Shown here one piece after another: positions 11,815 to 17,270 of a stretch of 42,427 nt of DNA. The stretch is taken from assembly GCA_048885925.1 (NCBI GenBank), contig JBHLLG010000023.1, forward strand, positions 1 through 42,427, written 5' to 3'. The notes beneath the pieces are model-generated. The model was not told where the DNA came from, did no database searches, and saw nothing but the letters and a program-made list of their open reading frames with translations. Numbering within the stretch: position 1 is the stretch's first letter; each line of letters begins with the position of its first letter. Origin of the DNA: Candidatus Hermodarchaeota archaeon (GTDB taxonomy: Archaea > Asgardarchaeota > Lokiarchaeia > Sigyniarchaeales > SOKP01). A program made the position numbers and the translations under genes.

Positions 11815-13758
11815 ATGGAAAATCAAACTCATCGGATTGGTTACTATGCATGTCAGTGAGGTATAAACATCCGAAGTAAAGTTGATTGTGATGAGCTCGT
11901 GGAGTACGTTAAAAACAAATTTCCTGATGAAATTGTTATATCAAAAAAAAACGCTTTCTTATGAACTGATAGTGCTCAAAATGAAATAATTGAGGATATA
12001 AAAGAGAAAAATTTAAACAGAATTGTAGCTTCAGCTTGAACTCCGCGTACACATGAAGTAATTTACCGAGGGACAATCGCTAAGACAGATTTAAATCCAT
12101 ATTATTTTCAGATGGTAAATGTACGGGAACACTGTTCTTGGTGTACAGATAGCAAACAAGAAGCGACAGAGAAAGCAAAAATACTTGTAAAAAGTGGTAT
12201 TGAAAGAGCTAAACTACTAGAGCCAGTTCCGATTAAAACAGTTCCTGTTACAAAAGCTAGTATGGTTGTTGGAGGAGGAATTGCAGGGATGAATGCTGCT
12301 TTGGATCTAGCTAATCAGGGGATCAAAGTCTATTTAGTAGAACAAAAAACAACTATAGGAGGTAGAATGGCTCAATTGGATAGAACATTCCCTACTGATG
12401 ACTGTGCTATATGAATTTGTGGTCCTAAAATGTTAGAAGTAAATAGGAATGAGAATATTGAATTATTAACCTATTGTGAAGTGAAGAAAATAGAGGGTTA
12501 TGTTGGTAATTATAATGTAACAATTGAAAAGAAACCAAGATATACTACAGATGAATGTAATGGGTGTGGAGCATGTGCTGAAGTTTGTCCTGTTTATACA
12601 ACAAATTATTTTGATGAATATTTAGGTACACGAAGGGCAATTGATATTTCCTTTGGTCAAGCGGTACCATTCTTATATGATGTAGATCGAAACGCTTGTA
12701 TTGAATGTTTCTCGTGTGTGGATGCTTGTGAATTAGATGCCATTGATTTTAGCCAAATACCAAAACAGATAGAGATCAACGTTGGTACGATAATAGTAGC
12801 TACAGGTTGGGATATCCATGAGCCTTATGGAGAATACGGTTACGGAGAATTTGAAAATGTTATTACTCAAGCCCAACTTGAGCGAATGTTAGCTCCAAAT
12901 GGACCACTTGAAGGACATGTGCGAAGAATTTCAGATGATAAAAAACCCCAAGAAATCGTATTCATCCAATGTGTCGGAAGTAGAGAAACAGAAAGAACAT
13001 ATTGCAGCGGTGTATGTTGCATGTTAGCTTTAAAAAATGGAAGATTATTAAAAGAAGAATTTCCAGAAGCAAATATTACAATTTGTTATATTGATATAAG
13101 AACAAATGAAAAAGGTTTCGAAGAATATTTCCAACGTGCTAAAGATTTTGATATTAAATTGGTTCGAGGTAAGGTTGGTGAGATCTCTGAAGATCCTGAT
13201 ACTAAAAATATAATACTCCGTGTTTATTCGTCTTTAACGGATGAGATTATAAAAATAGATGCGGATTTAGTTGTTCTATCTACAGCAGCGCTCCCATCAA
13301 AAGGCACCCAACAAATTGTTCAAGTGTTGAATCTTGATACAAATACATATGGGTTCCTTACAGAATCACATTTCGGTTTAATGCCGCAAGAAACTAAAAC
13401 AAAGGGAATATTTATTGCGGGTTTTGCTCAAGGACCAAAAAATATCTCATATTCCGTGTCTCAAGCCAGAGCTGCCGCAAGTAAAGTAGCTGAATTGACT
13501 TCCCCAGGAGAAATCGATTTAGAACTAATAACTGCGGAAGTAGATAGTGAATTTTGCATATCATGTAGAAGATGTGAAAAAGAATGTCCTAAGAATGCCA
13601 TCAAAATAGATGAAGCGATTGGTGCTTTTATCGATGAAATTAACTGCGATGGTTGCGGTATTTGTGCGACCTGTTGTCCTACTCAAGCAATTGACATTAA
13701 ATATTATCGTGATCACCAATTATTTGCTGAAATTACTGGTTTATTAGGAGGTGAATAG
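11815..13758 (+). CDS. hdrA: selenoprotein heterodisulfide reductase subunit A, ~647 aa, 4 in-frame UGA (Sec)
   Basis: One frame from ATG 11815 (alternative GTG 11803) to TAG 13758, interrupted only by TGA at 11857, 11962, 12037 and 12412. Contexts are ACQUGINI, AFLUTDSAQ, ASAUTPRTHE and DDCAIUICGPKM, each matching a Cys in the paralog at 17270. Joins track ORFs 12112-12414 and 12430-13758. Confidence 0.93.
13747..13754 (+). promoter_or_regulatory. Shine-Dalgarno site for vhuD
   Basis: GGAGGTGA 10 nt before ATG 13765, inside the hdrA 3' end. Confidence 0.7.
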
Positions 13759-13764
13759 ACAATA

Positions 13765-14220
13765 ATGCAACATAATTATAAAATAGTAGCTTTTGCTTGT
13801 TTAAAGTGAGGTTATAGCGCAGCAGATTTAGCAGGTGTTTCTCGTTTAAAATATACGACAACAGTAAAAATTGTTAAAGTAAGATGTACAGGGAGAGTTG
13901 ATGTGAAACATATCCTTTATAGTATTATCTCTGGAGCTGATGGCGTCATGGTAGTAGGTTGACGACCTAATGAGTGTCAATTTAAGAATGGTAATTTCAC
14001 GGCTCAACGGCACGTTGATTTGGCAAATAGAATTTTAGAATCTCGAGGTTTTGGAAATCAAAGAGTTAATATGTATTGGTTAAGTGGGGCTGAATCAGAA
14101 AAGTTTGTAAAGAGTGTTGAAGATGCTTATGAAAAAGTAAAACGAGCTGGCCCAAATCCAATTAAAACTATGGATGTCGATATACCAGAAGACAAATTAG
14201 TAATTACCCCTATAGAATGA
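13765..14220 (+). CDS. vhuD: selenoprotein methyl-viologen-reducing hydrogenase delta subunit (VhuD/MvhD), 151 aa, 2 in-frame UGA (Sec)
   Basis: MQHNYKIVAFACLKUGYSAADLAGVSR...RCTGRVD...GADGVMVVGURPNECQF; TGA at 13807 and 13960 align with Cys in CCNWCSY and ITGCHIGDC of the paralog at 20381. Confidence 0.92.
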
Positions 14221-14273
14221 TTCTTATAAAAAAATCTTAGTTATAGGATGACTAACCTTGTGACGGAAGGGGT
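14206..14273 (+). promoter_or_regulatory. eukaryote-type SECIS element candidate
   Basis: AUGAU (14217-14221) / UGAC (14249-14252) non-Watson-Crick core; 8-bp helix UCUUAUAA/UUAUAGGA; A-rich apical loop AAAAAUCUUAG; lower pairing ACCCC (14206-14210) / GGGGU (14269-14273). Confidence 0.8.
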
Positions 14274-14332
14274 TCTAATAAAATTTTAAAAATTATCGAA
14301 TTCTTATAAAGTTTTTAAAGATTACTAAAAAT

Positions 14333-15847
14333 ATGGTTCAAATAGTTAATAATAAATTGTTTACTGGAATATCTCCAAAAGGATTAATGGAAGCAACTTA
14401 TAAAGCTTCATGTAATTTTCAAATTCGAGCTTTTTTTGAAGCAAAAGATGAAATATTGAAGGCTGGAAAATATACCGAGAATGAGTTTTATGAAATTCTG
14501 GATGCGATGATTGATGCAGAAACAGAGCGTAAATTAGTCTTAGAAAAACTAAAAGGTAATAAACCGCTATTTTTAGAAGAACTTGCAATAGTTGTTAAAG
14601 AATTTCCCTTAGAGAATGTAATTAGAGATATAATCTATTTAAAAGAACAAGGATATATTGAGGAACATATTGAAGTTAAAACTAAAAAAGTGATTAAAAA
14701 AATTAAGGGAGAAGAAAAAGAAGTTGAGGAAAGTGAAAATTTCTATAGATATCAAGTGAAAGATATTTCTGATAATTTTATTGAACATTTTTTTGAACCA
14801 GTATCTTTAGTGTCTGAATCTGAAGTATGCTGTCAGTGTGGTTGGTGTTCATCAATTTGTCCTGTAAATGCCATTACAGTTACAGCAGATACTTTAGAGA
14901 TTGATGATGATATTTGTATGAAATGTGGCTTATGTTATTCAGTTTGTCCTCGTTCCTTTTCAATTGAACAAGCTTTATTGAGTATTAACAAGCTCAATAA
15001 ATCATTGAAATTTTCAGAAAAAATCAACGGGTATCTTAATACTTATTCAGCTACAACAACGAGTGATGAGATCAAAAAGATACGACAGGATGGAGGAATT
15101 GTTACCTCTTTACTTGAATATTTATTGAAGAATAAATTAGTTGATGCGATTGTAGCTGTTCAGCATTCACAGGACTATTGGAAACCTGAACCAGTTATAA
15201 TAGATGATATTAAAAATTTATATAAAACTGGTGGAACCAAGTATGCTAATGCATCAACTTTAAACATAATCGATAAAACAAAGAGGTATGAGAATATCGC
15301 AATTGTTGGTGTTCCTTGCATGATGAATGCTCTAGAAAAAGGTAACTTATTCCCAAGCGGATTTCCTTTTTTTAAGAATATCAAATATAAAATTGGACTT
15401 TTTTGCATGGAAGCCTTTCCTTATGAGAATGTGCTTAAACTTATTAAAGAACAATTTGACAAAGATTACACAAAAATAAAAAAAATGGATATTAGTGGGG
15501 GTAAATTTATTGTTTACTTAGATACAGGTGAAGATTTAAGAGTGCCGTTAAATGATGTAAAAGTTTATGCACGTCATAACTGCCATTTTTGCGAAGATTT
15601 AACCTGCGATTGTGCCGATATTTCTGTAGGATCAATAGGATCACCGAGTGGTTGGTCATCAGTAATAACCAGAACGAAAATTGGAGAAAAAATCTTTAAA
15701 AATGCTATTAAAAAGGGTTTAATTGAATCCAAAAGCCTAAAAGACGTTAAACCAGGCCAAGATTTGCTTGAACGGATAGCTGGAACAAAAAGAAAGAATT
15801 GTAAGCCGCTAATATTAAAAAAGAAGACCTTGATTTCAAAATGCTAG
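14333..15847 (+). CDS. coenzyme F420 hydrogenase/dehydrogenase beta subunit (FrhB/FpoF-like) with N-terminal helical/wHTH extension and 2x[4Fe-4S]
   Basis: CCQCGWCSSICP, CMKCGLCYSVCP, QDGGIVTSLL, GTKY, VGVPC, IGLFC, CHFCED and ADISVGSIG motifs. Confidence 0.88.
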   Translation: MVQIVNNKLFTGISPKGLMEATYKASCNFQIRAFFEAKDEILKAGKYTENEFYEILDAMIDAETERKLVLEKLKGNKPLFLEELAIVVKEFPLENVIRDIIYLKEQGYIEEHIEVKTKKVIKKIKGEEKEVEESENFYRYQVKDISDNFIEHFFEPVSLVSESEVCCQCGWCSSICPVNAITVTADTLEIDDDICMKCGLCYSVCPRSFSIEQALLSINKLNKSLKFSEKINGYLNTYSATTTSDEIKKIRQDGGIVTSLLEYLLKNKLVDAIVAVQHSQDYWKPEPVIIDDIKNLYKTGGTKYANASTLNIIDKTKRYENIAIVGVPCMMNALEKGNLFPSGFPFFKNIKYKIGLFCMEAFPYENVLKLIKEQFDKDYTKIKKMDISGGKFIVYLDTGEDLRVPLNDVKVYARHNCHFCEDLTCDCADISVGSIGSPSGWSSVITRTKIGEKIFKNAIKKGLIESKSLKDVKPGQDLLERIAGTKRKNCKPLILKKKTLISKC

Positions 15848-15965: not shown

Positions 15966-17270
15966 TTGTATTATATTAATGGATTGGAAGTGGACATAAT
16001 AACAGAAATTAATGGAAAGGATAAATTGCAACCAAAAATAGATGAAACTGACATCTATCTAGAGAAAATTTATGAAGAAAAATTAAGAGATATGCTGAAG
16101 CGTTGCTATCAATGTGGTCGTTGTTCTGGAGTATGTCAACTTAGCAAAGTTCAAAAGTTTACACCTAGTAGAATCATTCAAATGATCTTGGAAGGTTTTG
16201 AAGACAAGATAATTGAAAGTGGTGTATTATGGGACTGCTTATCGTGTAACACATGTCTACAATATTGTCCTGAAGAGATCAATTTTGCAGATATTGTAAG
16301 AGTCGCGAGATATAAAATGCGAAATTTGGCAAATCAAAGCCCTGATGAATACATAGCTCATAAAGGTATTTATACAACTATTTCTGAAATAATGAGTCAA
16401 CAAGGAATACGTCCTGAAAGAAATCTTGAGTGGGTTCCTAAAGGATGTAAAATTTCTGATAAAGGAAATATAATGTATTATATTGGATGTCTACCTTTTT
16501 ATAATTTTGAATTTGAAAATTCAGATTCTATAGCGAAAAGTACTCTAAAAATTATTTGTCAAATTGAGAAAGAACCTATTGTTGTTCTTAAGGATGAAAT
16601 CTGTTGTGGCCATGATATATATTGGGGACAAGGAAAGTTAAATGAATTTATCAATTTGGCTAAAAAAAATGTTAAAAAACTTGAAGAAACCGGGGCTACA
16701 ACAATTATAACTGCTTGTGCAGAATGTTATAGAACTTTTAGAGTGGATTATACACACTTATTTGAAGATTTTAATGAAAAATTCAAGGTAAAACATATAA
16801 TAGAATATGTTTATGATCTCTGGAAACAAGGTAAAATTGAATTTAAAAGTCCTAAAGATATAACAGAACCTATTTCATTTACATATCATGATCCATGCAG
16901 ATTGAGTAGATTTTTACCTAAAGAAAGCACTTTAATGGAAAATGTAAGAGAGTTATTCTCTGAATTAAAAAAAATTGGTTATGAATTCAATGAAATGGAA
17001 CATAATCAAGAAAATTCTTTATGCTGTGGAGTCAGTTCTTGGATGAATTGTAATGAAAAGTCTAAAGCACTTCGATATAAGCGTATGTTAGAAGCAAAAG
17101 AAGCAGGAACAATAATGGTAACATCTTGTCCAAAATGTGCCATACATTTAAATTGTATCCAAAATGATTATGAAAATTTGGCTTCAGTAGAAATTCTAGA
17201 TTTTTCAGAATTTTTAGTAAATTTAATACAGATTAAAAATGCTGTAGAAAAATCGGAGGTTAAAGAATAA
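15966..17270 (+). CDS. HdrD-like Fe-S oxidoreductase (HdrC-type ferredoxin plus two CCG domains)
   Basis: CYQCGRCSGVC, CLSCNTCLQYCP, EICCGH, TACAEC, YHDPCRL, LCCG and TSCPKC motifs; exact start uncertain. Confidence 0.88.
   Translation: MYYINGLEVDIITEINGKDKLQPKIDETDIYLEKIYEEKLRDMLKRCYQCGRCSGVCQLSKVQKFTPSRIIQMILEGFEDKIIESGVLWDCLSCNTCLQYCPEEINFADIVRVARYKMRNLANQSPDEYIAHKGIYTTISEIMSQQGIRPERNLEWVPKGCKISDKGNIMYYIGCLPFYNFEFENSDSIAKSTLKIICQIEKEPIVVLKDEICCGHDIYWGQGKLNEFINLAKKNVKKLEETGATTIITACAECYRTFRVDYTHLFEDFNEKFKVKHIIEYVYDLWKQGKIEFKSPKDITEPISFTYHDPCRLSRFLPKESTLMENVRELFSELKKIGYEFNEMEHNQENSLCCGVSSWMNCNEKSKALRYKRMLEAKEAGTIMVTSCPKCAIHLNCIQNDYENLASVEILDFSEFLVNLIQIKNAVEKSEVKE

Follow-up and report, generated by a model that had tools for sequence, protein, structure and literature searches.

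The region 14206-14273 (+) of a 42,427-nt stretch of DNA from Candidatus Hermodarchaeota archaeon (contig JBHLLG010000023.1, positions 1 to 42,427; this whole stretch is called the window below) is very probably the single selenocysteine insertion sequence (SECIS) of the adjoining hdrA and vhuD genes. The element would be of the lokiSECIS type, take the form of a kink-turn (k-turn) over a three-way junction and serve six in-frame UGA codons located upstream. The UGA within its own core is the stop codon of vhuD and would terminate translation, being too close to the element to be recoded into selenocysteine (Sec). LokiSECIS elements were described for Lokiarchaeota selenoprotein genes by Mariotti et al. 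2016 (PMC4989117), and the main text of that paper is the source of the features compared here. The same features were found in the window: an AUGA 5' of the stem, a 9-bp stem (eight standard pairs and a U.U), an apical loop of 11 nt with A-rich first five positions and a last G preceded by A, and on the 3' side a GA, the place of which is taken by AA in some of the published genes. The context also corresponded: the element closes a selenoprotein gene, it is the only one of its hdrA-vhuD pair, and hdrA stops at UAG. Judged by all the sequence criteria, the element is a real member of the lokiSECIS class.

All parts of the element lie on the plus strand. Helix I, at the base, pairs 14206-14211 with 14268-14273 (6 bp), and its 5' strand is within the vhuD coding sequence, at Thr-Pro codons. 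The C stem of the k-turn follows, the 5' strand of which (14213-14215) provides the pairs G14215-C14252, A14214-U14253 and U14213-A14254. The 3-nt loop of the k-turn occupies 14216-14218 (A, A and U, corresponding to L1, L2 and L3), and its U14218 opens the stop codon. The AUGA core (14217-14220), containing the stop UGA at 14218-14220, was invariant in all 46 rows of the orthologue alignment A1 described below. Helix II is formed between 14221-14229, which includes an in-frame UAA (14227-14229), and 14241-14249; eight of its nine positions are standard pairs and the one at the base is a U.U. The apical loop (14230-14240) has five A first and AG last. On the 3' side, 14250-14252 holds the core GA (14250-14251) and the invariant C which closes the C stem. 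A small hairpin, helix III, is located in the 3' strand at 14256-14266, where 14256-14259 pairs with 14263-14266; a U.C mismatch in the window leaves three of these four positions paired. An earlier note, made from the sequence of the window, had proposed the core, an 8-bp helix, an A-rich loop and a lower pairing ACCCC/GGGGU, and this reading was accurate to the base. Helix I is the noted lower pairing with one extra U-A pair, its 5' strand enters coding sequence as claimed, and the 8-bp helix is the same as the published 9-bp stem once the U.U is counted. The identity proposed in the note, a eukaryote-like SECIS with a k-turn core, was supported by the lokiSECIS features, the orthologues and the covariation.

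The hdrA gene (11815-13758 (+), 647 codons, stop UAG at 13756-13758; coordinates from a scripted translation) contains in-frame UGA codons, read as Sec, at 11857, 11962, 12037 and 12412 (+). These are Cys-type positions in all four cases, e.g. in the stretch C-A-I-U-I-C-G-P, and the product matched the Fer4 and Pyr_redox families of Pfam. The gene lies directly upstream of vhuD on the same strand. The vhuD gene (MvhD/FlpD family) was translated from the ATG at 13765 to 14220 (+; 151 codons), with in-frame UGAs assigned to Sec at 13807-13809 and 13960-13962 (+). Its first in-frame stop past these two internal UGAs is the UGA at 14218-14220, followed by UUC UUA UAA; the core UGA is thus the vhuD terminator, as the earlier note had assigned it. 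The product matched PF02662 (FlpD) with E = 2.7e-42 over residues 7-128, and because this domain covers most of the 151 residues, termination at codon 152 is plausible. The pair contains six in-frame UGAs, four in hdrA and two in vhuD, at distances to the AUGA of 1805 to 2360 nt and of 257 and 410 nt, respectively.

The structure was evaluated in four alignments. A1 consisted of 46 sequences aligned with MAFFT and not fitted to a model, A2 of 49 model-fitted sequences, A3 of 79 model-fitted sequences of a second VhuD family, none of which had been used in model building, and A4 of 14 PrxL sequences that were not model-fitted. Over helices I, II and III, 88.0% of the cells in A1 were paired and 12 of the 19 pairs had changed on both sides. 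The covariation score of A1 was 0.209, compared with 0.147 for shuffled alignments (none of 500 reached the real value) and at most 0.130 for slid partners. In A2, 92.8% of the cells were paired and both-sided changes were detected in 16 of the 19 pairs. The second VhuD family gave 89.0% paired cells, both-sided changes in 19/19 pairs and a covariation score of 0.584 versus 0.209, with slid controls at or below 0.136. The paired fraction of A4 was 89.4%. Helix I had double-sided changes at four of six pairs in A1 and at six of six in both A2 and A3; its sequence differs from one gene family to another and is complementary in each. The corresponding values for helix II in A1 were 95.7% paired cells and double-sided changes in 6/9 pairs. 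The paired cells of helix III amounted to 87.0% in A1, 89.7% in A2, 89.5% in A3 and 84.3% in A4; double-sided changes were present, in A3 at all four of its pairs.

The pair closing the k-turn, formed by a G two positions before the AUGA and a C after the 3' GA, was present in 46/46 sequences of A1 and in 14/14 PrxL sequences. The next pair outward in the C stem was formed in 36 of the 46 sequences with five pair types, and the third pair in 22. At the sequence level, a Watson-Crick closing pair, a 3-nt bulge and the G.A and A.G combinations of a standard k-turn were all found. The core therefore reads as a standard-looking k-turn with the G-C closing pair at -1b/-1n, the 3-nt loop A14216, A14217 and U14218, and the predicted tandem sheared pairs G14219.A14251 and A14220.G14250. 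The vhuD stop codon would then make up L3, G1b and A2b of the predicted k-turn (position names follow the nomenclature quoted from PMC4005666).

The strand without the bulge carries hairpin III, which is flanked by the core GA and the 3' strand of helix I. It recurs in the two VhuD families and in PrxL and was also recognized, on visual inspection, downstream of a lone hdrA and of a small UGA-containing ORF (open reading frame) of the same genome. A third helix on the non-bulged strand is the topology of the k-junction as set out in the text of Wang et al. 2014 (PMC4005666), and the same topology was found here. In contrast to that k-junction, the k-turn of the present element is set apart from the third helix by a 1- to 3-bp C stem and a 2-3-nt linker. 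The element fits the Asgard type I eSECIS model in the main text of Huang et al. 2024 (PMC11227280), in which the core is GA_[G/A]A, the upper stem has 7-15 bp and the apical loop measures 8-20 nt. In that model only an internal loop and a lower stem are present below the core, with no conserved nucleotides there across families, whereas here a covarying hairpin fills the 3' side of the so-called internal loop. The third hairpin, the closing G-C and the 3-nt loop were not found in the main text of PMC4989117, the figures and supplements of which may differ. Likewise, no mention of a third hairpin was found in the main texts of PMC4989117, PMC11227280 and PMC13188914 or in a literature search, although figures or supplements may show it. 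It is tentatively suggested that the Asgard SECIS is in general a k-turn on a three-way junction and not a simple two-stem hairpin, with the third hairpin and the k-turn geometry as undescribed functional parts; this is regarded as possible rather than probable.

The specificity of the element was determined by pattern and model searches in the source DNA, which has a G+C content of 29%, and in the 3.9-Mb genome. A loose motif gave 28 matches in the window and is common in AT-rich DNA; the loose scan was dropped as non-specific and a strict pattern was used in its place. The strict motif required AUGA, nine stem positions with no more than one mismatch, an 11-nt loop having at least three A among its first five positions and G as the last, and then GA or AA. 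It occurred once in the window and nine times in the genome, compared with 1, 0, 1, 1 and 0 occurrences in five shuffled genomes. Six of the nine matches were directly behind UGA-containing genes, namely the vhuD of the window, three further vhuD genes (each behind hdrA), the lone hdrA and PrxL. The remaining three were within long ORFs and look like chance. The covariance model R1 gave a single match in the 42-kb window, which was this element, and in the genome it added one match to the strict motif hits, behind the small UGA-containing ORF. R1 missed two elements, those of PrxL and of the third vhuD paralogue, which were treated by pattern and by visual inspection instead.

The conservation of the overlap between stop codon and core, named in the earlier note as a point to be checked, was determined in 46 loci, each containing a close VhuD relative and each from an Asgard metagenome-assembled genome. 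One locus (L042) ends before the end of the gene, and in L045 the gene start is missing and the frame was judged from the match coordinates and the motif position. The motif scan placed a SECIS at the vhuD end in 44/44 readable loci. The core UGA was the in-frame terminal stop in 39 of these 44, or in 40/45 when L045 is counted. In three of the five exceptions (L013, L041 and L046) an in-frame UAG stands just 5' of the AUGA, in L044 an in-frame UGA abuts the AUGA, and in L039 the stop is a few codons upstream. On the maximum-likelihood protein tree, the bootstrap of which was not fully settled, the exceptions were scattered singletons and required five changes for five rows. Two of them had sister groupings of note, L013 with the overlapping L015 (100/97) and L044 with L043 (95/94). 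Because the exceptions are scattered in this manner, the overlap is the prevailing state of this VhuD orthogroup, with several independent departures, and is probably also its ancestral state. In A1, L013 lacks one of the few bases that separate helix I from the AUGA in L015; L015 stops at the core UGA and L013 at an in-frame UAG immediately before the AUGA. A UAG in the stretch before the AUGA was considered as a conserved second-frame stop and rejected, its position varying among the orthologues.

The exceptions end one to a few bases before the AUGA, and the C-terminus of VhuD therefore needs no residues past the core. The tail itself (window 14200-14220 and L001-L046; Thr-Pro-x-Glu in most orthologues) has codons that also form the k-turn loop, the C stem and the 5' side of helix I, and the C-terminal residues of VhuD appear to be dictated by the RNA structure. 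The second VhuD family and PrxL have a differing helix I sequence and with it a differing C-terminal peptide.

Other selenoprotein genes showed a different distribution of stops. Of the other vhuD paralogues in this genome, two have UAG 1 nt before the AUGA as their stop and the third has UAA 20 nt before it; for the lone hdrA the stop is UAA 11 nt and for PrxL UAA 2 nt before the AUGA. The lone hdrA (678 codons, two in-frame UGAs) has a SECIS of its own at contig C11:60152-60243 (-) (locus L048) with no vhuD between. The second VhuD family comprised 80 loci, of which the strict pattern missed 18 and the covariance model found 79. Counted from the model alignment, 35 of these 79 stop at a UAG 1 nt upstream of the AUGA and 14 at the core UGA itself; a UAA serves in 24, located 9-15 nt upstream in 23 of them and 2 nt upstream in one, and the last six have a UGA that abuts the AUGA. 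The PrxL search returned 17 loci; four bacterial ones (L165-L168) were left out and 13 Asgard loci were counted. A SECIS was found behind 13/13 of the Asgard PrxL genes, with the stops being UAA 2 nt before the AUGA (9), UGA 2 nt before (1), the core UGA (2) and an earlier stop (1). In almost all cases, no more than about 20 nt lie between stop codon and core, and the use of the core UGA as stop is a variant that recurs among these genes.

The element would direct Sec insertion at the four UGAs of hdrA and the two of vhuD, and translation would terminate instead of inserting Sec at codon 152. The mRNA channel of the ribosome covers roughly a dozen nucleotides downstream. With the core UGA in the A site, helix I, the k-turn and the 5' strand of helix II would already be unwound, no SECIS would be left on that mRNA to recruit the Sec machinery, and a release factor would read the UGA. 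The UGA would be tolerated as a stop solely through its closeness to the core, beyond the reach of recoding. The earlier note had reasoned in the same way and had gone further, proposing a built-in discrimination between stop and Sec that possibly also limits the recoding rate. In its stronger form, the overlap would be a selected device in which each terminating ribosome destroys the SECIS and thereby paces or limits recoding at the six upstream UGAs. This is unlikely. The retention of the overlap in 40/45 loci, although neither the length nor the sequence of the preceding protein tail is constant, speaks for such a device, as does the position of helix I in coding sequence, by which any ribosome finishing vhuD must unfold the element. 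The three vhuD paralogues of the same genome, stopping at UAG 1 nt (two) or UAA 20 nt (one) upstream, do not fit it, and neither does the use of the core UGA by only 14/79 second-family VhuD and 2/13 PrxL genes. Since the SECIS would be opened just as well by a ribosome that halts 1 to 15 nt further upstream, the overlap as such adds no extra unfolding. A required built-in device was consequently not borne out, with a UAG or UAA placed 1 to 20 nt upstream of the AUGA in PrxL and the paralogues. The preferred view is that the overlap results from a very tight packing of SECIS and stop codon, being one of several interchangeable arrangements, and is probably no regulatory device of its own.

The decoding of the core UGA itself as Sec at a useful rate, giving a protein that ends with Sec and two residues before the UAA, is considered very unlikely. 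Sec near the C-terminus is known in other selenoproteins, and the in-frame UAA two codons past the core UGA was present in 35 of the 40 overlapping loci. This UAA is the top of helix II, and the two residues past the UGA are both set by the stem sequence. In four loci the UAA was lost (L005, L016, L023 and L032), with the stem base and its partner changed together so that the pair was kept; the next stop there is 18 to 30 codons on, and decoding of the core UGA would add 18 to 30 unconserved residues of translated SECIS. A fifth locus (L014) has a UGA in place of the UAA. The UAA is therefore a by-product of the stem: the structure is conserved and the back-stop is not, and the UAA, pointed out in the note, was not supported as a selected feature (4/40 lose it with a compensating change and 1/40 has UGA). 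Moreover, three of the exceptional orthologues end at UAG and L044 at UGA just before the AUGA, with L039 ending earlier, and in the main text of PMC4989117 SECIS function at UGAs this close is argued to be prevented by structural constraints. In the present genome, the nearest UGA that is plausibly recoded is that of the small ORF, 117 nt upstream of the AUGA of its own element. A different k-turn RNA, either a C/D-box-like small RNA or an L7Ae-binding regulatory or terminator structure at the operon end, would share the core, which is a generic k-turn, and weak C/D small nucleolar RNA-like Rfam matches were present nearby, on the opposite strand or elsewhere (E = 0.66 to 9.2). These matches were far under the gathering scores (18.5 vs 43 bits, and similar). 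The location of the element behind UGA-containing genes in six of nine strict matches and one model match in the genome, and elsewhere behind 44/44 and 79/80 vhuD and 13/13 PrxL genes, is not expected of such an RNA, which is accordingly regarded as highly improbable. The lokiSECIS assignment, with termination at a UGA too near to be recoded, is the preferred reading.

Several results weigh against this reading. RNA folding, proposed in the earlier note as a check, did not recover the SECIS helix: the minimum free energy fold (-14.3 kcal/mol) was without helix II, its z-score was -0.12 and 91 of 200 shuffled sequences were as stable. The proposed structure was assigned -12.6 kcal/mol, compared with -14.6 kcal/mol for the minimum free energy structure. 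Single-sequence folding is uninformative for such an AU-rich element, and the structural support is comparative. The window's own copy has a U.U as the first pair of helix II and a U.C in helix III. Alignments A2 and A3 were model-fitted and are therefore biased towards the modelled structure, and R1 missed the two motif-defined SECIS of the same genome behind PrxL and the third vhuD paralogue. Rfam at gathering scores gave 0 matches in the whole window, so that membership among the eukaryotic SECIS families was not obtained by that measure, and a permissive Rfam scan (E up to 10, 13700-14400) returned no SECIS family. The Rfam miss was expected, because existing archaeal, bacterial and eukaryotic SECIS tools failed on the lokiSECIS genes according to the main text of PMC4989117. 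Three C/D small nucleolar RNA-like matches of Rfam (E = 0.66 to 9.2, two on the opposite strand) were rejected as noise. The candidate for the tRNA of Sec, described below, reached 34.1 bits against a Rfam cut-off of 47, and aragorn reported none.

The genome was also searched for the Sec machinery. A gene for SepSecS was found at contig C8:84028-85185 (380.7 bits) and an EFSec-like gene at C8:76648-77568, with 234.9 bits, just below the cut-off of the bacterial selB model. A probable tRNA-Sec with a UCA anticodon loop is located at C8:83730-83804 (+) (locus L058, 1501-1575), roughly 220 nt ahead of SepSecS, although its acceptor stem could not be aligned. The presence of these genes is indirect support for Sec insertion directed by the element. 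The small UGA-containing ORF is at contig C11:36831-37154 (+) (loci L054 and L140). It consists of 80 codons with one hydrophobic stretch, followed by an in-frame UGA in the context Gly-Sec-Gly-Cys, and the SECIS behind it scored 56.7 bits with the model. Matches to this ORF were detected in 11/23 genomes of the same genus, each with exactly one in-frame TGA, and in 0/16 genomes of other families. It is a candidate small selenoprotein, and no obvious fit was found to the archaeal selenoprotein families named in the main text of PMC13188914. Three [NiFe] hydrogenase large-subunit genes (contigs C7, C39 and C11; L146-L151) had no in-frame stop inside their Pfam matches, and for this reason the genome may use Cys forms where other Lokiarchaeia have Sec-containing VhuU/FrhA.

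Downstream of the SECIS, the window contains a gene for an FrhB/FdhB-like protein with a ferredoxin domain (14333-15847 (+)) and a gene for a CCG-domain (HdrB/C-like) protein (15966-17270 (+)). The next start codon is just 59 nt away, and the SECIS may therefore be internal to a longer transcript.

As in the lokiSECIS genes presented in the main text of PMC4989117, the element is at the end of a coding sequence, with one element per hdrA-vhuD pair and up to six UGAs over about 2 kb. The stop of hdrA was reported there to be always UAA or UAG. Nothing of substance differs from those lokiSECIS; here the gene is vhuD and the overlap was conserved in 40/45 loci of one orthogroup. An AUGA doubling as stop codon was described for VhuU.1, and the Discussion of the same paper argued by inference that UGA stops near the SECIS are not recoded, citing a minimal UGA-SECIS spacing as in eukaryotes (PMC4989117). 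UGA stops of Lokiarchaeia selenoprotein genes often overlapping the AUGA were also reported in the main text of Huang et al. 2024 (PMC11227280). Since both the overlap and the distance argument were published in these two papers, the overlap finding and the reasoning that the UGA is too close to recode are already known. Eukaryotic type I SECIS (RF00031 and related) share the AUGA...GA k-turn core and the unpaired A at the loop start, and, as cited in the main text of PMC4989117, the action at a distance on several UGAs and the minimal UGA-SECIS spacing. In contrast to them, the present element has a shorter helix II, in agreement with the remark on helix length in the earlier note, overlaps coding sequence rather than lying in a long 3' untranslated region, and carries the extra hairpin in the 3' strand. 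The SECIS of Methanococcales and Methanopyrus are likewise located just after the gene, and in their vhuD elements the main stem is flanked by AUGA and by GAC or AAC (main text of PMC4989117). Unlike those, the element has no GC-rich two-stem structure with a GAA/A bulge.

The present analysis adds the frequency of the overlap per family, quantified as 40/45 in this VhuD orthogroup versus 14/79 in the second VhuD family and 2/13 in PrxL, and the explanation of the UAA as a by-product of the stem. It also adds the observation that helix I and the k-turn double as coding sequence for the VhuD C-terminus, together with a fuller k-turn/three-way-junction model. No SBP2 homologue is reported for Lokiarchaeota or Asgard archaea in the main texts of PMC4989117 and PMC11227280. 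LokiSECIS is a proposed link between archaeal and eukaryotic Sec decoding, and the exact anatomy of the element therefore matters for finding the archaeal SECIS-binding factor. The fuller structure, supported by covariation, could guide probing, binding and reporter experiments. If the third hairpin and the k-turn geometry are functional parts of the Asgard SECIS, the hairpin could be a recognition element for that factor or, alternatively, a feature lost en route to the eukaryotic SECIS.

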